A stretch of DNA of 64,000 bases from positions 28,219-92,218 of the forward strand of contig JAVKJW010000007.1 of the NCBI GenBank assembly GCA_031458695.1, read 5' to 3'. Source of the stretch: Candidatus Thermofontivivens primus. GTDB lineage: Bacteria; Sysuimicrobiota; Sysuimicrobiia; Sysuimicrobiales; Thermofontiviventaceae. The translations under genes and the position numbers were made by a program. This document shows positions 1,617-30,338 of this stretch, one piece after another. Under the pieces are notes generated by a model that was not told where the DNA came from, searched no databases, and saw only the letters and a list, made by a program, of their open reading frames with translations. Numbering within the stretch: position 1 is the first letter of the stretch; every line of letters starts with the position of its first letter.

Positions 1617-3875
1617 TTGATCCTTCTCATGGGGCCTGCTAAGGTGGGGATAGCGATGGGTGAGCGAAACCCGGCGGGAGAGCCCAAGGTGAGACCTAGC
1701 CCTGCAACCCTCCAGGGGACAGTGGAGCGGATCACCTACGTGAACGAAGAGACTGGCTACGTCGTGGCCCGCCTGGAGGTCCCAGGGCGGAAGGAGTTGG
1801 TGACGGTCGTGGGAAACCTGGCCTCCGTGAGCCCTGGGGAGACCCTCCGGCTCTACGGGCGATGGATCATCCACCCCCGGTACGGCGAGCAGTTCCAGGC
1901 CGAGCGCTATGAGTCGGTCGTCCCCGCCACCCTGACGGGGATCGAGAAGTATCTGGGCTCCGGCTTGATCAAAGGCATCGGCCCAATCTTCGCGAGGCGA
2001 CTTGTGGAGGCTTTCGGCCTCGACACATTCCGGGTCATCGAGGAAGAGCCGCACCAGCTCCTCAAGGTCGAAGGGATCGGCCCCATCCGCAAGGCCCGGA
2101 TCGTCCAAAGCTGGGCCGAGCAACGGGAGATCCGCGAGGTCATGGTCTTCCTCCAGAGCCACGGTGTTTCCACCGCCTACGCCGTGAAGATTTTCAAAGC
2201 CTATGGTTCTCGGGCCATCTCTATCGTCAAAGAGAACCCTTACCGCCTAGCCCAGGACATCCATGGGATCGGGTTTGTCACCGCCGATCGCATCGCCCAG
2301 GCCCTCGGCATCCCCAAGGACTCTCCCCTCCGCGTACAAGCGGGGATCCTCTATGTCCTCCACGAGCTGGCCGACGAAGGGCACGTCTACGCCCCTTATG
2401 GGGAGTTGATGAAACGGTGTCGTGTAGCGTTGGAGGTTGACGAGTCCCTCCTCGCCCAGGCTGTGGAGACCCTCCAACGGGAGGGTCGCATCATCGTGGA
2501 GGAACGGGAGGACGGGACAAAGGCCATCTATCTCGAACCGCTTCACGTCGCCGAGGTGAACGTCGCCCGCCGCCTCCTTGCCCTTGCCCAAACCCCCTTC
2601 CCCAAGATCTCCATCGATGTCGAGAGGGCCATCGCCTGGGCTGAGCAGCAACAAGGTTTCTCCTTTGCCGAGGCCCAGAAGGAGGCGATCCGAAAGGCCC
2701 TGACGACAAAGGTCCTGGTGATTACTGGAGGGCCTGGAACCGGCAAGACCACGATTCTCCGGGCGATCGTCGCCATCCTGGAAAAGAAGAAGCTCAACAT
2801 CGCCCTCGCTGCACCCACGGGGCGGGCAGCCAAGCGCATGAGCGAAGCTACTGGGAGGGAGGCCAAGACCCTCCACCGCCTCCTCGAATGGAGCCCGCAG
2901 GAGGGGCGGTTCCTCCGAAACCAAGAGCGTCCCCTCGAGGTAGATCTCGTTGCCGTGGATGAGTGTTCGATGATCGATATCCTCCTCATGAACAGCCTCC
3001 TTCGAGCCCTCCCGTTCCAGGCGATCTTGATTCTCGTTGGGGATGCCGATCAGCTCCCCTCCGTCGGCCCCGGAACCGTTTTCCGCGACATCATCGCCTC
3101 GGGCGCAATCCCTGTTGTGGCCCTCAGGGAGATTTTCCGGCAAGCCCGGGAGAGCCTCATCGTCGTCAATGCCCACAGGGTCAACAACGGCCTCATGCCC
3201 ATTCTTCCCGCGGAGGGCAAGAGTCCTTCGCGGGACTTCCTGTTCATTCCCAAGGAGACGCCCGAAGAGATTTTCCAGGAGATCCTCACCCTTGTCGGGC
3301 AAAGGCTTCCCAGGGAGTTTGGCCTGGATCCCCTGGAGGAGGTCCAGGTCCTTTCCCCCATGCACAAGGGGATCATTGGTGCTGCCCAGCTGAACCAGGC
3401 CCTGCAGAACCTCCTCAATCCCCATGGGCGGGATGTCCGCAAGGGAGCCTCACCTTTCCGCGTCGGCGATAAGGTGATGCAGATCCGCAACAACTACGAA
3501 AAGGAGGTGTTCAACGGGGACATCGGCCGGATCGTCGGGGTGGACTTGGAGGACCAGGAAGTGGTTGTCCGTTTTGAAGATCGCACCGTCTCTTACGACT
3601 TCACCGAGCTGGACGAGCTGGTCTTAGCCTATGCCATCAGCGTCCACAAGAGCCAGGGAAGCGAGTACCCCGCTGTCATCCTGCCCCTCCATCCTTCTCA
3701 CTACGTGATGCTCCAGCGGAACCTGCTTTACACCGCGATCACGCGGGGGAAGCGGCTGGTCGTCCTGGTGGGGACGAAGAAGGCGCTGGTCCTCGCCGTG
3801 AAGACCGTCAGGACCCAAAAGAGGTGGTCGCACCTGGAAGCCCGGCTCCGGAGCACATCCCTGTCCTTCCCATGA
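1617..3875 (+). CDS. recD2: RecD2-type ATP-dependent 5'-3' DNA helicase (RecD/TraA family)
   Basis: 752 aa. Walker A (VITGGPGTGKTT), DEAD-like VAVDECSMID, C-terminal SVHKSQGSEYPAVIL motif and an N-terminal HhH/OB region are typical of RecD2. The start may be the internal M at about 1656. Confidence 0.85.
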   Translation: MILLMGPAKVGIAMGERNPAGEPKVRPSPATLQGTVERITYVNEETGYVVARLEVPGRKELVTVVGNLASVSPGETLRLYGRWIIHPRYGEQFQAERYESVVPATLTGIEKYLGSGLIKGIGPIFARRLVEAFGLDTFRVIEEEPHQLLKVEGIGPIRKARIVQSWAEQREIREVMVFLQSHGVSTAYAVKIFKAYGSRAISIVKENPYRLAQDIHGIGFVTADRIAQALGIPKDSPLRVQAGILYVLHELADEGHVYAPYGELMKRCRVALEVDESLLAQAVETLQREGRIIVEEREDGTKAIYLEPLHVAEVNVARRLLALAQTPFPKISIDVERAIAWAEQQQGFSFAEAQKEAIRKALTTKVLVITGGPGTGKTTILRAIVAILEKKKLNIALAAPTGRAAKRMSEATGREAKTLHRLLEWSPQEGRFLRNQERPLEVDLVAVDECSMIDILLMNSLLRALPFQAILILVGDADQLPSVGPGTVFRDIIASGAIPVVALREIFRQARESLIVVNAHRVNNGLMPILPAEGKSPSRDFLFIPKETPEEIFQEILTLVGQRLPREFGLDPLEEVQVLSPMHKGIIGAAQLNQALQNLLNPHGRDVRKGASPFRVGDKVMQIRNNYEKEVFNGDIGRIVGVDLEDQEVVVRFEDRTVSYDFTELDELVLAYAISVHKSQGSEYPAVILPLHPSHYVMLQRNLLYTAITRGKRLVVLVGTKKALVLAVKTVRTQKRWSHLEARLRSTSLSFP

Positions 3876-5295: not shown

Positions 5296-5973
5296 ATGGC
5301 TGAAGCAAAAGTGCATGGGTTCTTGTTCTTGCGCGTTCCCGCGGGATTGCGGAATCCCCAAGGGGCAAAGAGGACCAAAGAAGCCGTGGAAGCCGCAGAG
5401 CGAACGGAAGGCGTCTTGGCCATTTACCCGTATAGCCTCGTCGGCCTCCGCGCCGATGCTGATCTTGGCTTTTGGATCGCGGCCACAGATCTGGAAAAGT
5501 ACCAATCCGCTGCCAGGGAAATCCTGCATACAGGCCTGGAGGTGACCTGCACCCTGTGGGGATTCGTGCGGCCGTCGCAGTACACCGGTCGCTCTGGCAC
5601 AAGCGTCCAGGTCCCTGGAAAGCGCCTGCGCTACCTCATCGTCTACCCCTTCTCCAAGACCCACGCGTGGTACCAGCTCCCTGAAGAAGAACGGCGGAAT
5701 ATGATGAGGGAGCATGCCCGCGTAGGCCATGGCTTTAAGGGGATCGAGCAGCTCCTCCTGTACTCCACCGGGCTCGCCGACTGGGAGTTCGTGGTGGGCT
5801 ACGAGACCGACGACCCCGAGCGCTTCTCCGAACTCGTCATGGCCCTCCGGAGCACAGCGGCGCGGCCTTACACCCTCCGGGATACGCCCATCTTCACAGC
5901 ACGCTCGGGATCCCTAGAGGAGATCCTCGAAGAGGTCTTCGGCACAGGGATCAAAGCTGAAGTCGGGACCTAA
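5296..5973 (+). CDS. hemQ: Coproheme decarboxylase / chlorite-dismutase-family protein (HemQ/ChdC)
   Basis: 225 aa with chlorite-dismutase-like fold signatures (YSLVGLRADADLGFW, WYQLPEEERRNMMREHARVG, LLYSTGLADWEFVVGYETDD). The upstream AT-richer region carries TTGCAT and a TTAAAA -10-like element, with RBS AGAGGGA. Confidence 0.7.
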   Translation: MAEAKVHGFLFLRVPAGLRNPQGAKRTKEAVEAAERTEGVLAIYPYSLVGLRADADLGFWIAATDLEKYQSAAREILHTGLEVTCTLWGFVRPSQYTGRSGTSVQVPGKRLRYLIVYPFSKTHAWYQLPEEERRNMMREHARVGHGFKGIEQLLLYSTGLADWEFVVGYETDDPERFSELVMALRSTAARPYTLRDTPIFTARSGSLEEILEEVFGTGIKAEVGT

Positions 5974-5980
5974 ACCAAGG

Positions 5981-7039
5981 CTACCCCCTCCTTCGCGCAC
6001 GGAGAGTATTCCCCAGGAAGACCAAGAGGGCGAGCACGTTGAGCAATCCACCCCAACGCCTCCCGGGGATCCAAAGGAGGAGGTCCGAGGCGACCCGGAG
6101 GGCCAGCGAGAGGTGCAGGAGGATGAGGTGCGCGTAGAAGCTAGGCTGGAAGGAAAGGGGAAGGCCGAGGATGGCCGGGAAGATGATGGGGGCGTGCCCG
6201 AAGATCATGGCGAAGACGAAACCTAAGAAGAAGGTATGGAGAATGGCGTCGTAGCGCGGCCCTGCAGGCTCCCCAAAGAAGAAGAGGGTCGCAAGCCCGC
6301 TCAAGCCTAGCCAGGCATAGCCGGAGAGGAGGCAGATCGCCGTGAACCTCGGCAGACCCGGCTCCCGGACCGTACGGCGGGCGATGTCCTGCAGGAGGAA
6401 CCAGAGAGCAAGCGCCACCATAGCTACACCAGATATCCTGAGCCCTCCCATAAACCAGAAGGGGCTCACGACGATGCCGACCGAAAACAACCCTAAGGCG
6501 ATCACGAACGCGCTCCGGCTTCCCGCAGAGAGCCGGACGAGGCGCGAGAGCTCAAGCCTCTCCCCTGCAATGGTGAGGGTGAGGAAGGCGATCCACCACG
6601 GAACTGCCCGGAACAGGGGAGTGCCCGCCGCCCAGAGGAGGTTCCCGACAAACCAGGCCACCGCGCCACCGGCCATGGCGATGGTGAACACCGTTGTCTG
6701 GCGTCGCACGATGGCAAGGAAGACCGCCACAAACCCGAGGCTCCCGAGCACCATCAGCCACTGGCTGGGTAAACCCAGAATGAGGGCGACGGCGCCAAGC
6801 CCCGTGAGGAGCGGCGCGCTATAGGACCAGGCTTGCCCAAGCGCGACAGCCCTCTCTAGACCGATCAAGGTTCCCAGGAACCCGGAAACCATGAGAGGGC
6901 CGTGAGAAGCTGGAAATGCGCCCCTCAGGCGCGGGAGATCCCACCCGATCCTGAGGAGACCTGCCCACATCCCCAGAAGGAGCGCGAGGAACCCCAGCGC
7001 CAGGAGAGGGAAGCGAAGGCGTCGCAAACCCTGGTTCAT
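5981..7039 (-). CDS. Polytopic (about 12 TM) membrane protein, possibly NnrS-family (NO-response heme-copper membrane protein)
   Basis: Highly hydrophobic. His-containing motifs (SHGPLMVSGFLG, HTFFLGFVFAMIFGHAPIIFP) resemble the HAHEMLFGF-type NnrS signatures. It sits with hemerythrin/DUF2249/DUF1858/Crp genes. Start ATG 7037-7039 overlaps the DUF488 stop as ATGA. Confidence 0.35.
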   Translation of the reverse strand: MNQGLRRLRFPLLALGFLALLLGMWAGLLRIGWDLPRLRGAFPASHGPLMVSGFLGTLIGLERAVALGQAWSYSAPLLTGLGAVALILGLPSQWLMVLGSLGFVAVFLAIVRRQTTVFTIAMAGGAVAWFVGNLLWAAGTPLFRAVPWWIAFLTLTIAGERLELSRLVRLSAGSRSAFVIALGLFSVGIVVSPFWFMGGLRISGVAMVALALWFLLQDIARRTVREPGLPRFTAICLLSGYAWLGLSGLATLFFFGEPAGPRYDAILHTFFLGFVFAMIFGHAPIIFPAILGLPLSFQPSFYAHLILLHLSLALRVASDLLLWIPGRRWGGLLNVLALLVFLGNTLRARRRG

Positions 7040-7401
7040 CGCTTTGTCTTCATCCGCCGCTCGATGATCCTCTTGAGCACGCTGCGGTGGCAATATTCCT
7101 CGTCCTCGCAGGTACACAGGAGTGTGATGGTCTCGCTGCGGGCGCGGCGGGCGAGTTCTTCTACGCGAGCCTGTGCCTGTGGGTCAGCCTCAATCTGGGC
7201 TTCATACCGGCGTGCAAACTCCTCCCAGCGGAGCCGCTTCCCCTTCCATGCCTTAATCAGCTCAGGGGCTGTTCCGAGCTCCTTGTACCACGCGTGGAAA
7301 GCCTCCCGCTTGACCCCACGCGGGTACAGGCGCATGACGAGGATCCGTGTCCCGTCCTCGGGGGAAGGCGCGTCGTAGACGCGTTTGGTCTGCACCGGCA
7401 T
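7036..7401 (-). CDS. DUF488-family protein
   Basis: 121 aa. The N-terminal RVYDAPSPEDGTRILVMRLYPRGVKRE..HAWYKELGTAPEL pattern is characteristic of DUF488. Translationally coupled (ATGA) to the downstream membrane protein. Confidence 0.65.
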   Translation of the reverse strand: MPVQTKRVYDAPSPEDGTRILVMRLYPRGVKREAFHAWYKELGTAPELIKAWKGKRLRWEEFARRYEAQIEADPQAQARVEELARRARSETITLLCTCEDEEYCHRSVLKRIIERRMKTKR

Positions 7402-7417: not shown

Positions 7418-7861
7418 CTACAGGACGCTGACGGACCTGCGCTCGGCCCACTGCGCTCCTAGCTGGGTCAGGGTTTCCTCTCCCAGGATCTGGCCCGCCA
7501 TGGGGAAGAGGACCTGTTCCTCCTTGGCGAAGTGCTGGCGCGCCACCTGGAGGGCGTGCACCAGGAGGCCGCGCGCCTCCACAAGGTCGTCCACGTTCGG
7601 GATCCTAGAAAGGGTCCCCTCGATCTCGTTGTGCTCCGCCCGCATCACGGCGAGCGGCCCCATGGGGCCCAGGTGAGGGTCTAAGGAGGGGAACAGGACA
7701 TCCTCCTCCAAGCGCGCATGCGTAGCGAGGGCCGCAGCGAGCAGCGCGGCCTGGGCATGGACCTCTCCCACCGTCTCTGTGTGGGGCAGGACCTGCTCCA
7801 GGTGAGTGAACTGAGCGTAGAACACGCCGTGCTCTCCAAGCAAGGCATCGGTGATCTTCAT
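7418..7861 (-). CDS. Hemerythrin HHE cation-binding domain protein
   Basis: HHE-type motifs (LLGEHG, ATHARLEEDVLFP, RAEHNEIEG, HFAKEEQVLFP). The likely start is MKITDALL, from the second in-frame M. Confidence 0.7.
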   Translation of the reverse strand: MKITDALLGEHGVFYAQFTHLEQVLPHTETVGEVHAQAALLAAALATHARLEEDVLFPSLDPHLGPMGPLAVMRAEHNEIEGTLSRIPNVDDLVEARGLLVHALQVARQHFAKEEQVLFPMAGQILGEETLTQLGAQWAERRSVSVL

Positions 7862-7960
7862 CCCTCTCCCCCCTTTGTTATCCATCCCTTTCCCACCAAG
7901 CAGGATGTTTTATCCGCACGGTTCCTCGTTTCCAGGCGAGCGGGGAACCCCCTTTCTGTA

Positions 7961-8176
7961 TCAGAACCTCTCCTGGCCGATAGCCTCTATGAGCTCGTCG
8001 AGGAAGCCCTCCAGGGGGAGCCCATAGATCCCGGCCACCTCGGCCACCGTCTCAAAGGGTGCCGCTGCGCAGCCTACGCAAGCCATCCGGTGTGAGAGGA
8101 AGACAGGGATGGCCTGAGGCCACCGGCCAAGCACCTCGGAAACCGTCAATCCCTCAAGATGGCGATCTTTTGCCAC
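7961..8176 (-). CDS. DUF1858 domain protein
   Basis: 71 aa: LTVSEVLGRWPQAIPVFLSHRMACVGCAAAPFETVAEVAGIYGL matches the DUF1858 pattern (CxGC). It is often co-encoded with hemerythrin/NO-stress genes. Confidence 0.6.
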   Translation of the reverse strand: MAKDRHLEGLTVSEVLGRWPQAIPVFLSHRMACVGCAAAPFETVAEVAGIYGLPLEGFLDELIEAIGQERF

Positions 8177-8195: not shown

Positions 8196-8915
8196 TTATC
8201 TCCCTACCTTCCCAATGCGCACCCGCCACACCTCCGGCCCTTGCTCCATGTACTCCCAGGTGAACTCTCCTTCCCGCTCATACTTGAACTGGTAATACAA
8301 TGGCTTTGGATCGTGGTCGTTGATCAGGATGAACGCCTCCCCCGGCCTGAGCCCATCGAACGCCTGGAAGATGAGTGGGTGCCTCTGGGGCGGCGGGGTC
8401 CCCCGCACATCGAGGGCTTTGACCTCCCCTCCGGAGTTTCCGTGGAAGGCGGCGTGCATCCCCTTGAGGACTTGCTCCTGGTTCGCCTCGGAGAGGTAGC
8501 GCTCGAACAGCGGGAGGTAGACACGCTCCTCCTTCTCCAGGTGAACCCTCAAGAGGGCTTCTAGCTGGAGGGCTTGGTCGCGGAGCTTCCTTTCGAGAGC
8601 GGGTCGTACGCCCTCTCCCGCTTCCTGCAGGGCTTTTACCGTCTCCTCGATGCTATGGATGTAGCCTGCGATGAACTCGTGGTCGATACTCATCGTGGCC
8701 GTCGCCTGGCCATAGGACTTGACCAAAGGCTCCACTGCAGGATACAAGGAACGCTCCTCCCCCACGGCATGGGGAAGCAGATCCCCCTTCAGAAAGGCAA
8801 CGAGCCCTTCTGCATCCTCAAGCTCTCCACCGCGTTCGAGCGCGGAGAGCCTCTCTGTGAGCTCTTTCAGGAGCGCACGGTGGTGCGCGCGAATCGCCTC
8901 ACCAACCTTCCCCAT
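8196..8915 (-). CDS. Hemerythrin-like domain fused to DUF2249
   Basis: N-terminal HHE-type helix bundle (HHRALLKEL..HAVGEERSLYP..HEFIAGY..HLEKEERVYLPLFE). C-terminal DUF2249 signature (LDVRGTPPPQRHPLIFQAFDGLRPGEAFILINDHDPKPLYYQF). Strong RBS GGAGGGAG upstream. Confidence 0.7.
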   Translation of the reverse strand: MGKVGEAIRAHHRALLKELTERLSALERGGELEDAEGLVAFLKGDLLPHAVGEERSLYPAVEPLVKSYGQATATMSIDHEFIAGYIHSIEETVKALQEAGEGVRPALERKLRDQALQLEALLRVHLEKEERVYLPLFERYLSEANQEQVLKGMHAAFHGNSGGEVKALDVRGTPPPQRHPLIFQAFDGLRPGEAFILINDHDPKPLYYQFKYEREGEFTWEYMEQGPEVWRVRIGKVGR

Positions 8916-8987
8916 CGCTCTCCCTCCTCGTGGTGATCTCCCTTGGGTCGGACAGCATCGAGTATACTCAAGCGAGGCGGCAGGTCT

Positions 8988-9001
8988 TTGCGCTAGCGCA
9001 A
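8988..9001 (-). promoter_or_regulatory. FNR/Crp-family palindromic box TTGCG-N4-CGCAA (TTGCGCTAGCGCAA) in class-II position
   Basis: A perfect 14-bp palindrome lies 21 nt upstream of a TATACT -10-like hexamer on the minus strand. Its centre is about -41.5 relative to the predicted TSS of the hemerythrin-DUF2249 gene (start 8915). It overlaps the stop codon of the upstream crp/fnr-family gene. Confidence 0.5.
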
Positions 9002-9727
9002 ACGTTCACCGCCTCCCGAGGAGAGATCCTCTGCGATCGCCACAAGCCCGTGGGGGAACCGGATGAGGATGCGAGCTCGTCGGCTCTCGATCAGCCCTCG
9101 TTGCTCCCAGCGGGCAAGGATGCGGCTTGCGGTGTAGATGGTGGTTCCGGCCATCTCCGCGAGGTCCTGGCGGGAGAGGGGGAGGTCGATGAGAACTCCT
9201 CCTTCTACCTTCCGGCCGGACTGCCGAAGGAGGCGAAGGAGGGCGCGGGCGATCCTCTGCTCCACCCGTTCAGTGGCCATCTCCCTCAGCCGGTCCTGGA
9301 GCTCCTGGACGCGGTCTGCGAGGAGATGGAGGGCGTTTACCGCCAGACGGGGAAAGCTTTCCATGAGCCGGGACATCGTCTCCCCATCCCAGCACAGGGC
9401 CGTGCACTCCTCTACGGCCTGCGCCGAAACAGGGTAGGTCGCGTCCCCCAACGCCGCGATCCCCCCAAACATCTCTCCATCCCTGACAAAGCGCAGGAGC
9501 ACCTCCTGGCCCTCGGGCGTCGTCTGGGTCAATCGCACCCGGCCGCGGAGGAGGATGTAGAGGAACCTTGCTGGATCTCCTTGGTGGAAGAGGAACTCCC
9601 CTTTGGGGAAACGGCGGGTCCGCGCCCGATGGACGATCTCCTCGAGTTCCGGAAGGCTGAGGCCAGAGAACAGGGGAATCCCCTGGACAATGGAGAGATC
9701 GTGGGGAGGAATACCCGCAGTAGGCAT
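8993..9727 (-). CDS. Crp/Fnr-family transcriptional regulator (cNMP-binding fold plus C-terminal HTH)
   Basis: 244 aa: cNMP-binding-like domain (FHQGDPARFLYILLRGRVRL), then HTH (LSRQDLAEMAGTTIYTASRILARWEQRGLI). No N-terminal Cys cluster, so it is not an FNR-type Fe-S sensor; more like the Dnr/NnrR/CooA subgroup. Confidence 0.85.
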   Translation of the reverse strand: MPTAGIPPHDLSIVQGIPLFSGLSLPELEEIVHRARTRRFPKGEFLFHQGDPARFLYILLRGRVRLTQTTPEGQEVLLRFVRDGEMFGGIAALGDATYPVSAQAVEECTALCWDGETMSRLMESFPRLAVNALHLLADRVQELQDRLREMATERVEQRIARALLRLLRQSGRKVEGGVLIDLPLSRQDLAEMAGTTIYTASRILARWEQRGLIESRRARILIRFPHGLVAIAEDLSSGGGERLR

Positions 9728-9883
9728 GGGAACAGGCCTCTAGATTCCTTCTGTGCACATTATACCTAGCTGGGAGGAGGTTGCAAAGCAAGCCGGCAAG
9801 GAGAAATGCTCCACGGGCTCGTAATATAGGGTTATGTGCCCTGGCAAAAGCCTTTTTGCTGGGGTTACGGAGAGGTGAGGGGG

Positions 9884-10915
9884 ATGGAGGAGGTCGGTGA
9901 GGGGATCTTCCGCCTCCAGGTGGAGATGCCAGGCCCCCTTGGGTCTGTTAATTGCTTTCTTCTCGAGGGCGGAGGCGAAGTGGTGCTCGTGGACACAGGG
10001 CCGGATGTAGCCGTCTCCCGGCAAGCTCTCTTGCGGGAGCTGCGTGCCCTTGGGAAACGCCTCGAGGAGATCACCCGCATCCTCATCACCCATGGACACC
10101 CGGATCACTGCGGGTTCGCCAAGCGGGCCCGGCAGGACCACGGGATCCCCTTCTGGATCCACCCGCTGGATGCCGAGTATTACGCCAGGATGCACCGAGG
10201 AGAACTTACTCTCCAGGCCCAAACCTGGATCCGTCGCGAGGTACCTGAAGAAGCTGTCTCACAGATCGAGATGGGACTTTGGGGGATGATGGGGATCGTC
10301 CAAGAGGAGATCCCATGGGATTCCTGCGACATCCCAAGAGAGGTCCCCGATCAGAAACCCATGGTGTTCCATGTTGGCGAGATGGAGTGGAGAGTCTTCC
10401 ACACCCCCGGGCACTCCCCTGGGCACGTGTGCCTGTACGAGCCTCACCTTGGGATCCTCCTCAGCGGAGACCTTGTGCTCCCCCAGGAGACTCCCCACAT
10501 TGGGCTAGATGGGAGCAATTCAGGAGATCCCCTGGCCAACTACCTCGCCTCCCTTCACCTTCTGGAATCCCTCCCTGCGCGGCTCGTCCTGCCAGGCCAC
10601 GGGGAGCCTTTCCACGATTTGGGGGAGAGGATCCTCGAGCTCCGCGCCCATCATCAGGAGCGACTCCACCTGATCCTCGAGGCTGTGCGGGAAGGGGCTC
10701 AGGGGATCTACGAGGTAGCCCAGCGCATCCGCTGGACTCCAAAGAAAGTCTCCTTTGGAGAGTTGGATCCCATCAACCAGTTCCTGGCGCTCCAAGAGGC
10801 CGCAGCGCACCTGGAGCACCTCGTCGCAAGAAACTGCCTCCAGCGCATCCCCAGCGAGGGGCCCACGCGGTTCGTCTTCCTCACAGAGGAAGGTGTCCTG
10901 GGGAAAGGGCTGTGA
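9884..10915 (+). CDS. MBL-fold metallo-hydrolase
   Basis: HxHxDH motif (ITHGHPDHCGF), downstream His/Asp ligands (TPGHSPGHVC, LVLPGHGEPF) and a C-terminal helical domain. Start chosen at MEEVGEGIFRL. The 3' end overlaps convergent otsAB by about 35 nt. Confidence 0.75.
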   Translation: MEEVGEGIFRLQVEMPGPLGSVNCFLLEGGGEVVLVDTGPDVAVSRQALLRELRALGKRLEEITRILITHGHPDHCGFAKRARQDHGIPFWIHPLDAEYYARMHRGELTLQAQTWIRREVPEEAVSQIEMGLWGMMGIVQEEIPWDSCDIPREVPDQKPMVFHVGEMEWRVFHTPGHSPGHVCLYEPHLGILLSGDLVLPQETPHIGLDGSNSGDPLANYLASLHLLESLPARLVLPGHGEPFHDLGERILELRAHHQERLHLILEAVREGAQGIYEVAQRIRWTPKKVSFGELDPINQFLALQEAAAHLEHLVARNCLQRIPSEGPTRFVFLTEEGVLGKGL

Positions 10916-29285: not shown

Positions 29286-30338
29286 ATGCGTGGGAAAAGA
29301 CGAATGAGTTACGTTCTGACCGTTCTGATGCTCGGCCTCTTTGTGCTCCCTGTGTTTTCCGCGCCACCAAAGGTGAAGCTCACAATGTTCATTTGGGCAG
29401 GCGCAAACCAAGGGGTAGTTCCACGGGAGGTTGTTCGACAGTATTTGCGCACCCATCCAAACGTAGAAATTGAATTCTGGGAATCTAACAATACCATTAC
29501 TTATCCCAAGATGGTAGCGGCTAAACAAGCGAATCCGAACAATCCCCTCATCCATTTTGGGTTCTTCAACATCGATGCAAGCAACCGTGGTGACGTAGAC
29601 GACATGTGGCTTCCTCTCGACGAGAAGAAGATCCCGAATATGCGTTTTGTACATCCGAGTCTACGTCGTCCCGGGAATCATGGAATAGGCTATGGTATCA
29701 GCGCCATGGGTTTAATGTATAATAAGAACTTAGTGCAAGAGCCACCAAACTCCTGGAGTGCACTTTGGGATCCGAAGTGGCGAGGAAAAGTTACCTTCTT
29801 CGATAACAACTTCATCCCTCTTGTCCTGGCGGCTCGCTTAAATGGAGGGAGCGAAAAGAACATCGATCCAGGATTTAAGGTCTGGTCAGAGAATGCCAAG
29901 AACATTCGGGCCCTTGTGACGAGCAACGATCAACTTAAGAACCTTCTCGTGAGTGGAGAGGCACTCATAGCGCCTTGGTTTACGAGTATATGGAAGTTCT
30001 GGGAGCTGGAGGGAGCACCGCTTGGCTTCATCAATCCTAAAGAAGGTGTAGTCGCGTTTCCTATCTACCTCCAAATCGTGAAAGGTAGCACTCCAGAGCA
30101 GATCCGGATCGCAGAGGAGATTATCAACGAACTGCTGGCTCCCGAGAATAACGCGCGATACGCTCGCCTGACATTCGGAATTCCTTCTGTGAAAGGAGCG
30201 CAAATTGCAGAAAGTGTCCGGCAGATTCTTAACCCAAAGCTTCTGGATACTGCCATATGGCTGGATTGGGCAACGATGGCCCAAAGGGCCAGCGAGTGGC
30301 GCCAACGGTGGGAGCGCGAAGTAAAATCCAGAATGTAG
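29286..30338 (+). CDS. ABC transporter substrate-binding protein, PotD/PotF (spermidine/putrescine)-type
   Basis: Signal peptide (MSYVLTVLMLGLFVLPVFSA) and a PotD-like fold. RBS GGAGGG lies 9 nt before the ATG at 29286. Confidence 0.7.
   Translation: MRGKRRMSYVLTVLMLGLFVLPVFSAPPKVKLTMFIWAGANQGVVPREVVRQYLRTHPNVEIEFWESNNTITYPKMVAAKQANPNNPLIHFGFFNIDASNRGDVDDMWLPLDEKKIPNMRFVHPSLRRPGNHGIGYGISAMGLMYNKNLVQEPPNSWSALWDPKWRGKVTFFDNNFIPLVLAARLNGGSEKNIDPGFKVWSENAKNIRALVTSNDQLKNLLVSGEALIAPWFTSIWKFWELEGAPLGFINPKEGVVAFPIYLQIVKGSTPEQIRIAEEIINELLAPENNARYARLTFGIPSVKGAQIAESVRQILNPKLLDTAIWLDWATMAQRASEWRQRWEREVKSRM

Follow-up and report, generated by a model that had tools for sequence, protein, structure and literature searches.

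A putative NnrR-type class II promoter in front of a hemerythrin-DUF2249 operon in an Armatimonadota genome

Which regulator reads a perfect palindrome that lies across the end of one gene and just in front of the next, and what does it switch? In the 64-kb stretch of DNA analysed here (the window), the minus strand carries a gene for a Crp/Fnr-family regulator and, behind it, a gene for a hemerythrin-DUF2249 fusion, and the box TTGCG-N4-CGCAA falls at their junction. The initial annotation had described this arrangement as a class II promoter of the FNR/Crp type. Our results suggest that the box is probably the operator of the adjacent regulator, an NnrR-like activator, and a class II switch for the operon behind it, likely triggered by NO. 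The parts of this reading that we infer are that the adjacent regulator binds the box, that it activates and does not repress, where transcription starts and what the signal is. The coordinates of all features are listed in Table 1.

We found the palindrome as it had been described, and found that it extends to 16 bp. Its exact form occurs once in the 64-kb window compared with 0.03 expected, and the window motif gtTTGCGCTAGCGCAAag agrees with the NnrR box consensus ctTTGcgnnnncgCAAag published for alphaproteobacteria (Rodionov et al. 2005, PMC1274295). When a scoring matrix trained on related loci only was applied to the window, the operator scored 27.3 bits, compared with a top score of 18.9 across 100 shuffles. 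The runner-up (17.5 bits, 29392..29407) lies within a coding ORF and scores within the shuffle range; it was rejected as a second operator, and the matrix scan of the 64-kb window gave no second significant box. A looser pattern with 1-2 mismatches was barely enriched (39 versus 25 expected). As had been noted, the box also covers the stop codon of the regulator gene. The TAG (8995..8993) forms the box centre, and the left half-site consists of the regulator's last two codons, TTG CGC.

The -10 hexamer behind the box matches TATAAT at 5/6 positions and is separated from the box by 21 nt (8987..8967), the distance that had been claimed. AAGACC, which matches TTGACA at 3/6 positions, may serve as a partial -35 element. 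Class II Crp/Fnr-dependent promoters require a two-fold symmetric site, which the operator provides, and a recognisable -10 with a partial -35 is likewise characteristic of them. This promoter was not called in a standard promoter scan of the window, which is what one would expect of a weak -35. The box centre is at 8994.5, which corresponds to -40.5 when the hexamer is set at -12..-7, and it falls at -41.5 only if transcription starts 8 nt past TATACT. The predicted start would place the centre at about -40.5 to -41.5. An extended -10 (TGn) was rejected, as the TG sits 2 nt, not 1 nt, 5' of TATACT. The ribosome-binding site claimed for the first gene is present, and its GAGGAGGGAG string recurs in two related loci, L083 and L086.

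Table 1. Positions in the window of the regulator gene, the candidate promoter and the genes of the proposed operon
Feature	Position	Strand	Remarks
Crp/Fnr-family regulator, NnrR-like, 244 aa	8993..9727	(-)	Pfam cNMP_binding + HTH_Crp_2
Candidate sigma-70-like promoter of the regulator, TTGCAA-16-TATAAT	9759..9787	(-)	without NnrR box
Putative NnrR-type operator	8987..9002	(-)	16-bp perfect palindrome TTTGCGCTAGCGCAAA
Core box TTGCG-N4-CGCAA = TTGCGCTAGCGCAA	8988..9001	(-)	inside the 16-bp palindrome
Partial -35-like AAGACC	8983..8988	(-)	overlaps promoter-proximal end of box; 16 nt from -10
-10 hexamer TATACT	8961..8966	(-)	21 nt after box
Predicted transcription start	8953..8955	(-)	inferred from -10 position
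Ribosome-binding site GGAGGGAG	8920..8927	(-)	4 nt 5' of ATG (8915..8913)
Hemerythrin-DUF2249 fusion, 239 aa, first gene under the proposed control	8196..8915	(-)	Pfam Hemerythrin + DUF2249
DUF1858 protein, 71 aa	7961..8176	(-)	Pfam; starts 19 nt past the hemerythrin-DUF2249 gene
Single-domain hemerythrin, 155 aa	7418..7885	(-)	Pfam
DUF488 protein, 121 aa	7036..7401	(-)	Pfam
12-TM membrane protein, 352 aa from ATG at 7039	5981..7039	(-)	without Pfam family

The box was also searched for in 80 genome loci chosen by regulator homology alone, which together with the window make 81. Within a zone of -20..+900 nt from the regulator stop, a box with at most one mismatch was found 3' of the regulator gene in 59/81 loci (42 of the 59 exact), compared with about 5 expected from the background elsewhere in those loci (0.064 per kb). 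In favour of a chance palindrome without function, one exact match does appear in 3/100 shuffles of the window. However, the box keeps its position, its spacing and its gene context across the 59/81 independently selected loci, by which this explanation is effectively refuted.

Furthermore, a TAnnnT hexamer stands exactly 22 nt past the box in 41/54 non-redundant loci, and the same gap is seen at the Azospirillum box and at Ensifer nnrS. Such a 22-nt gap corresponds to class II geometry, with a predicted box centre of -41.5. The family consensus derived from the loci is tTTGCGCyrGCGCAAAGAC. In its downstream flank, the bases A-G-A-C recur in 46, 50, 52 and 37 of the 54 loci, respectively, with much weaker conservation of the mirror-image flank upstream, and at the modal spacing the flank reads aaGACa, 17 nt 5' of the -10. 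The gap in the window is 1 nt below the family norm, while two close relatives have 22 nt (TATCCT in L083 and TATCTT in L086); either a genuine deletion or a mistake in assembling the MAG could account for this. The spacing had been called exactly that of FNR/Dnr/NnrR class II sites; at 21 nt versus a norm of 22 nt, it is 1 bp away from the conserved optimum.

This geometry bears on whether the bound regulator would activate or repress. Repression, with the bound regulator either occluding the -35 or forming a roadblock against transcription that reads through from the promoter of its own gene, would suit a box that covers the -35 position and is situated within the transcription unit upstream, on the stop codon of the regulator, with no terminator between the regulator and operon units. 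We nevertheless regard it as quite unlikely. Occlusion needs no strict 22-nt gap, whereas a face-specific contact with polymerase does, and a partial -35 is to be expected where a promoter depends on an activator. The NnrR proteins that have been characterised switch on nir, nor and nnrS via such boxes, and the NnrR site of R. sphaeroides nnrS has been validated by mutagenesis (PMC1274295). In B. diazoefficiens, where TTGCGC..GCGCAA-type boxes occur near nnrR, expression of the adjoining DUF1858 gene is lowered 29-fold, and not raised, by mutation of nnrR (PMC6710368).

An activator of the NnrR type is also what the adjacent gene appears to encode. Its product is 43-54% identical to Azospirillum and Ensifer regulators at nnrS/nirK/DUF1858/DUF2249 loci: the Azospirillum regulators (51-54%) adjoin nnrS, DUF1858 and DUF2249, and the Ensifer regulator (44%) is sited after nirK and a nirV-like gene and adjoins nnrS. 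Homologues of the regulator are labelled 'nitrogen oxide reductase regulator' by JGI, and the DNR structure (PDB 3dkw) is among its PDB relatives (E 2.9e-17). An NCBIfam search with the regulator gave no model above its cut-off, with the CRP model reaching 70.9 bits compared with a cut-off of 266.

The recognition helix of the regulator is TTIYTASR. We compared I-Y-T-A-S-R in the window with L-H-T-V-S-R in Ensifer and Azospirillum, and with V-E-T-I-S-R and R-E-T-V-G-R, which we take to be the E. coli sequences of FNR and CRP, respectively. The position of CRP R180 is occupied by Ile, fitting T at motif position 3. Where CRP has E181, the window has Tyr, Ensifer and Azospirillum have His and FNR has Glu, and this Tyr fits C, not A, at motif position 6. 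With no Arg at 180, no Glu at 181 and S-R kept, the helix has the residues that go with TTGCG; the rule tying helix residues to motif bases is a published one (PMC1274295). FNR was rejected as the identity of the regulator: the Cys cluster is absent (the only two Cys are residues 108 and 112, and the protein lacks an N-terminal extension), the helix has Y--SR and not E--SR, and the half-site is TTGCG, not the TTGAT of TTGAT-N4-ATCAA. CRP was rejected as well, as I/Y replace R180/E181, the NCBIfam CRP score is below the cut-off, and TTGCG half-sites with N4 spacing stand in place of TGTGA-N6-TCACA. Judged by its sequence, the regulator is NnrR-like, and neither FNR nor CRP. The class II part of the initial annotation is supported by the 41/54 loci at 22 nt, and its FNR or CRP part has given way to an NnrR type.

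The helix also bears on the possibility that the box is read mainly by another Crp/Fnr paralogue, such as a FixK-like or Dnr-like protein, with its adjacency to this regulator being incidental. Our view of the genome is 64 kb, and the box sequences of FixK2 and NnrR overlap in B. diazoefficiens, where the two regulators have several targets in common (PMC6710368). Such a paralogue is unlikely, however, to be the main reader: the box accompanies the adjacent regulator family in 59/81 loci from several phyla, the helix residues match TTGCG specificity, and the half-site is TTGCG and not the TTGA[TC] of FNR/FixK. Control of the hemerythrin-DUF2249 and DUF1858 genes by the adjacent regulator, which the initial annotation had proposed, thus appears supported by the recurrence of the box, by the fixed gaps and by the like gene families at these loci.

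The palindrome might instead act in RNA, giving the regulator mRNA a hairpin at its 3' end or a terminator. It would form the inner stem of a structure in which an outer GAGGCGG (9015..9009) pairs with CCGCCTC (8980..8974), with an energy of -31.2 kcal/mol (z = -2.07). This z-score is modest, with 8/200 shuffles folding equally well, and conservation across loci extends to the -10 at its fixed distance but not to the outer stem. In addition, no U-tract follows the hairpin, and the terminator scan was empty at the box. A glyoxalase gene and IS remnants lie between regulator and target in three loci (L083-L085), where the box is found >1 kb from the regulator end, yet directly 5' of the hemerythrin-DUF2249 gene. 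We consider a role in RNA very improbable; an intrinsic terminator in particular was rejected, as the hairpin is without a U-run and the box moves together with the promoter of the target.

The operon that the NnrR-like activator would serve was examined gene by gene. Pfam bore out the claimed identities of the regulator and of the hemerythrin-DUF2249 and DUF1858 genes. The hemerythrin-DUF2249 protein has 2381 homologues of identical two-domain architecture, the DUF1858 protein is a hybrid-cluster-protein-associated redox disulfide domain, and the single-domain hemerythrin shows weak similarity to YtfE/RIC/DnrN models. The gene order, including DUF488, is repeated in L083-L085. The last gene, the ATG of which overlaps the DUF488 stop (ATGA), had been called NnrS-like, and this assignment did not survive. 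Its product has no match in Pfam even at E = 10, is not significantly similar in BLASTP to two annotated NnrS proteins, and aligns with NnrS in hhalign at a probability of 0.8%; for contrast, a true NnrS in locus L051 scores 386 bits. NnrS (PF05940) was thereby ruled out on sequence. The predicted model of the membrane protein has a fold like heme-copper-oxidase subunit I; in 2014, Pei et al. reportedly placed NnrS in the superfamily of heme-copper oxidases as well. The family of this membrane protein comprises at least 8000 protein clusters. In Nitrospira and Bipolaricaulia, its members likewise adjoin hemerythrin or nirS, and no NnrR box was found in the membrane-protein loci of Nitrospira, NC10 and Bipolaricaulia.

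In the related loci, DUF1858 is the commonest first gene past the box, at 31/62 box-plus-(-10) promoters, a count that comes from a crude ORF caller and in which several of the first genes marked '?' are probably short ORFs called spuriously. Promoters of this type, with the 22-nt gap, also precede genes for nirS (cytochrome cd1), nirK-like multicopper protein, nosZ, RIC (ScdA_N + hemerythrin) and NnrS, denitrification and NO-stress genes as known from NnrR regulons. In the window, genes of this kind are limited to hemerythrin/RIC-like, DUF1858 and DUF2249 ones. No nir or nor gene adjoins the operon there, and its physiological trigger could therefore be other than NO.

We propose that a dimer of the regulator would bind TTGCG-N4-CGCAA over the -35 region, centred near -41, and that the bound dimer would recruit RNA polymerase to the good -10 (TATACT) and partial -35 (AAGACC). 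This would switch on the genes for hemerythrin-DUF2249, DUF1858, hemerythrin, DUF488 and the membrane protein of heme-copper-oxidase fold, with nitric oxide or nitrosative stress as the likely trigger. Autoregulation through an NnrR box was rejected, since there is none 5' of the regulator gene, just TTGCAA-16-TATAAT. The regulator has this promoter candidate of its own and no terminator precedes the box; therefore, read-through probably gives the operon a basal expression. More speculatively, in the lineage of the window, where the box lies over the stop codon, the bound activator and polymerase might act back on how the regulator mRNA is completed.

The promoter type is well known and textbook; what is unusual is the bacterial phylum in which it stands. 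The box and its class II geometry were seen in Armatimonadota, Chloroflexota, Acidobacteriota, Latescibacterota and Limnochordia, a conservation reaching far beyond the Alphaproteobacteria, and a literature search on NnrR site positions and on NnrR in Chloroflexi returned nothing specific. Given this conservation across phyla, the matrix (tTTGCGCyrGCGCAAAGAC, 22 nt, TAnnnT) can be used to predict NO-responsive genes in uncultured denitrifier MAGs, with targets including nirS, nirK and nosZ. A likely signal, regulator and promoter mechanism can also be assigned to widespread genes of unknown function, those for DUF1858, hemerythrin-DUF2249, DUF488 and the membrane protein. As the promoter itself is textbook, the value of these findings lies in annotation and regulon prediction, not in a new mechanism. 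A bolder suggestion, which we make tentatively and with considerable doubt, is that the box marks a conserved NnrR-type regulon outside the Proteobacteria with a core of DUF1858, hemerythrin-DUF2249 and the membrane protein, not nir/nor. These three uncharacterised proteins could form an undescribed membrane-associated machine that senses or detoxifies NO.

Compared with NnrR of alphaproteobacteria (Rhodobacter sphaeroides, Bradyrhizobium, Ensifer/Sinorhizobium), the window has equal half-sites and spacing, and the AGA flank of its box is also found at Ensifer nnrS and Azospirillum DUF1858. The differences lie in the regulator, which has Tyr where the alphaproteobacterial proteins have His at the CRP-E181 position; in the operon, which carries hemerythrin-DUF2249, DUF1858, hemerythrin, DUF488 and membrane protein genes without nir/nor; in the box, which overlaps the regulator's stop codon and has a gap of 21 nt; and in the host, an Armatimonadota MAG, the relatives being mostly Chloroflexota. 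Class II promoters of E. coli FNR and CRP (site at -41.5) have in common with the window a dimer site over a weak -35 and a fixed -10, but none of the TTGAT/TGTGA half-sites, the FNR Cys cluster or CRP R180/E181 is found here. The DNR proteins of Pseudomonas and betaproteobacteria, which are NO-responsive and heme-based, are alike as NO-linked Crp/Fnr activators with class II architecture. DNR and NnrR form separate clades, with an FNR-like site for DNR (PMC1274295), and the window regulator is nearer to the rhizobial proteins in NnrR position than to DNR. In Thermus thermophilus, drpAB encode a DUF2249 protein and a protein of DUF1858 plus two DUF2249 domains, and depend on DnrT (PMC6282519). 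The Thermus proteins, proposed as nitrate sensors with a periplasmic and membrane location, differ from those of the window in regulator and in domain architecture; likewise, however, DUF2249 and DUF1858 proteins stand there under a Crp-family regulator of denitrification.

The sequence bears out the promoter layout described in the initial annotation. A TTGCG-N4-CGCAA palindrome (the box) lies exactly 21 nt upstream of TATACT, and the RBS-like GGAGGGAG stands ahead of the ATG of the hemerythrin-DUF2249 gene. The reported overlap with the stop codon of the Crp/Fnr-family regulator gene was also correct: the 3' end of this ORF reads ...GAA CGT TTG CGC TAG, and its TAG (8995..8993, -) forms the centre of the palindrome. 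The left half-site and operator centre (8993..9001, -) coincide with the regulator's final two codons, TTG CGC (Leu-Arg), and TAG. The core widens to a perfect 16-bp palindrome (9002..8987, -), followed directly on the same strand by AAGACC, which shares the final A of the box. The -10 region GAGTATACTC (8960..8969) is a perfect 10-bp palindrome as well, so that TATACT is readable on the plus strand too; this symmetry is probably coincidental.

Positions of the box, promoter elements and genes in the window
Feature	Position	Strand	Basis or detail
Palindrome core TTGCGCTAGCGCAA	9001..8988	-	sequence read
-10-like TATACT	8966..8961	-	21-nt gap after box
GGAGGGAG	8927..8920	-	between TATACT and ATG
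Start codon ATG of 239-aa ORF	8915	-	
Hemerythrin-DUF2249 gene	8196-8915	-	Pfam Hemerythrin + DUF2249
DUF1858 gene	7961-8176	-	Pfam
Hemerythrin gene	7418-7885	-	Pfam Hemerythrin
DUF488 gene	7036-7401	-	Pfam
Membrane protein gene	5981-7039	-	no Pfam match
Regulator gene	8993-9727	-	Pfam cNMP_binding + HTH_Crp_2
Regulator's own sigma-70-like promoter TTGCAA-16-TATAAT	9759..9787	-	near-consensus

The 64-kb window holds a single exact TTGCG-N4-CGCAA, where 0.03 would be expected. With a matrix trained on related loci only, the window being left out, the box scored 27.3 bits and 100 shuffles reached at most 18.9. The runner-up, TTTGGGCAGGCGCAAA (29392..29407, 17.5 bits), falls within the shuffle range inside a coding ORF of 360 aa and is likely a chance match. 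Decisive evidence against a chance origin of the box itself came from loci selected by the regulator protein alone, with the DNA motif playing no part. Through an alignment of regulator homologues, 80 loci were fetched, one genome per species, mostly from Chloroflexota but also from Acidobacteriota, Latescibacterota, Limnochordia and Azospirillum (Alphaproteobacteria). Allowing at most one mismatch between -20 and +900 nt from the regulator stop codon, we found a box in 59 of 81 loci (the 80 plus the window; 42 exact), mostly 8-60 nt past the stop codon. The remaining parts of the same loci held 0.064 such sites per kb, a background that by chance would put a box in about 5 loci. That the box is an accidental palindrome thus has next to no probability.

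Four close relatives, L083-L086, whose proteins are 76-81% identical, carry an identical box. In L086, an 81%-identical relative, the box (1912..1925) is likewise centred on the regulator TAG, an overlap common to this locus and the window. In L083-L085 the regulator and the box are separated by an inserted glyoxalase gene and IS110-type remnants, and the box still lies directly upstream of the hemerythrin-DUF2249 gene, indicating that it is part of the target promoter and not of the regulator gene's 3' end. The region could instead act as an RNA hairpin or terminator: it folds to -31.2 kcal/mol (z = -2.07), and an outer 7-bp inverted repeat, GAGGCGG/CCGCCTC (9009..9015, 8974..8980), brackets the box and would give the regulator mRNA a two-tier hairpin at its 3' end. 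However, no U-tract follows, the outer stem lacks conservation in the broad set (although in L086, too, GC-rich pairing is possible) and the box stays with its target gene, which together make this reading very improbable. All four relatives carry a gene for an Mrp/ApbC-like P-loop ATPase (FeS_assembly_P + ParA) between hemerythrin-DUF2249 and DUF1858; the window operon is without it.

Alignment of 54 non-redundant contexts on the box gave the consensus tTTGCGCyrGCGCAAAGAC. A TAnnnT hexamer starts exactly 22 nt past the box in 41 of these contexts, and any other offset occurs in at most 4. With the hexamer at -12..-7, this gap centres the box on -41.5, where class II sites of Crp/Fnr-family activators lie. 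The window gap of 21 nt, the sole such case in the set, is one base shorter and leaves 16 nt between the -35-like element and the -10. L083-L085 and L086 have 22 nt from box to TATCCT or TATCTT. A 1-bp deletion could account for the window spacer (8967..8987, -), as could an assembly error or a variant that is tolerated. The A-G-A-C right after the box is kept in 46, 50, 52 and 37 of the 54 loci, respectively, and its upstream mirror image is much less conserved, making the flanks asymmetric (window 8983..8987, -). We infer that AGAC mainly represents a residual -35 (aaGACa, with 17 nt to the -10), probably fused to the box half-site, and not a site of regulator contact. Binding of the box for repression or as a roadblock is unlikely, as both the face-specific spacing and the known role of NnrR as an activator count against it.

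The operon runs hemerythrin-DUF2249, DUF1858, hemerythrin, DUF488 and membrane protein, with gaps of 19, 75 and 16 nt and then an overlap of the last pair. In the 75-nt gap lies a hairpin that lacks a U-run on the transcribed strand. The DUF488 stop overlaps the likely membrane-protein ATG as ATGA (7036..7039, -), which suggests translational coupling; homologues align from the ATG at 7039, and the GTG at 7117, which opens a longer ORF, is probably not where translation begins. Neither flanking gene has a box: a chlorite-dismutase/HemQ-like gene is convergent (5296..5973, +), and an MBL-fold hydrolase gene, syntenic with the regulator in L083-L085, is divergent (9836..10915, +). Among box-plus-(-10) promoters in related loci, DUF1858 is the commonest first gene (31/62), often preceding hemerythrin-DUF2249 and a homologue of the window membrane protein. 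Other such promoters precede genes for cytochrome cd1 nitrite reductase, a nirK-like multicopper protein, nosZ, a RIC protein (ScdA_N + hemerythrin) and a bona fide NnrS (386 bits). These targets are the repertoire of NO-responsive regulons.

The membrane protein (352 aa, 12 TM), earlier labelled 'NnrS-like', had no Pfam match even at E = 10, nothing significant against annotated NnrS proteins by BLASTP and an hhalign probability of 0.8% against NnrS, which rules out an NnrS identity at the sequence level. Its family is very large (at least 7,900 protein clusters with a significant score); among the matches listed, members bearing a source name are 'hypothetical protein' and almost none has a Pfam domain. 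H46, H268 and H282 are among its invariant residues. A confident AlphaFold model (pLDDT 92.7) resembles heme-copper-oxidase subunit I (cbb3 CcoN, TM 0.73-0.76; cNOR NorB, TM 0.67). Pei et al. are said to have defined in 2014 'HCO homology' families that include NnrS, so the label may perhaps hold at the superfamily level only. Elsewhere the gene adjoins hemerythrin in Nitrospira, and nirS and hemerythrin in Bipolaricaulia; no NnrR box was found at these loci.

A class II promoter is the best-supported model. In it, the adjacent NnrR-like protein, probably activated by NO or nitrosative stress, would bind the box as a dimer and bring RNA polymerase to a promoter whose -10 is good and whose -35 is partial. 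Comparative conservation supports, with these refinements, the proposal that the adjacent regulator may control the hemerythrin-DUF2249 operon; binding by another Crp/Fnr paralogue has a small probability, about one chance in ten. No NnrR box was found at the regulator's own promoter, which suggests that the regulator does not activate itself and is expressed constitutively or under some other control. The operon has no terminator ahead of it, which makes basal read-through likely.

The regulator is not FNR proper: it lacks the cysteine cluster and has just two Cys (positions 108 and 112). Among solved structures none is closer to it than generic Crp/Fnr proteins, with DNR at E = 2.9e-17. Its recognition helix reads I-Y-T-A-S-R and that of the Azospirillum and Ensifer regulators L-H-T-V-S-R, compared with V-E-T-I-S-R in E. 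coli FNR and R-E-T-V-G-R in E. coli CRP. The window helix fits a published covariation rule, by which T, not G, stands at motif position 3 when Arg is absent at the CRP-180 position, and C, not A, at position 6 when Glu is absent at CRP-181 (PMC1274295). The window motif is the NnrR consensus ctTTGcgnnnncgCAAag, derived from alphaproteobacterial nir, nor and nnrS promoters, and mutagenesis has confirmed the nnrS site of R. sphaeroides (PMC1274295). In B. diazoefficiens, nnrR, with box TTGCGCTATCGCAA, adjoins a DUF1858 gene whose expression falls 29-fold in the nnrR mutant; the nearby hemN2 has TTGCGCGAGCGCAA (PMC6710368).

The window comes from an Armatimonadota MAG: its regulator has a 98% identical counterpart, and its membrane protein a 100% identical one, with that annotation. 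Our literature search found no description of an NnrR-type regulon in Chloroflexota or Armatimonadota. The promoter type and motif are already known; the host phylum and the composition of the local regulon are new, as is the breadth of box and 22-nt geometry conservation outside Proteobacteria. Proteins with DUF2249 and DUF1858 are tied to denitrification in Thermus (DnrT-dependent drpAB) and likewise in Haloferax. Azospirillum regulators (51-54% identity to that of the window) have nnrS on one flank and DUF1858 and DUF2249 genes on the other. Those of Ensifer and Mesorhizobium are 43-44% identical; at the one Ensifer canadensis locus examined (L082), nirK and a nirV-like gene precede the regulator, and nnrS lies upstream. 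Both the DUF1858 box of Azospirillum and the nnrS box of Ensifer carry the AGA flank as well, and each has TAnnn[T/C] at 22 nt.
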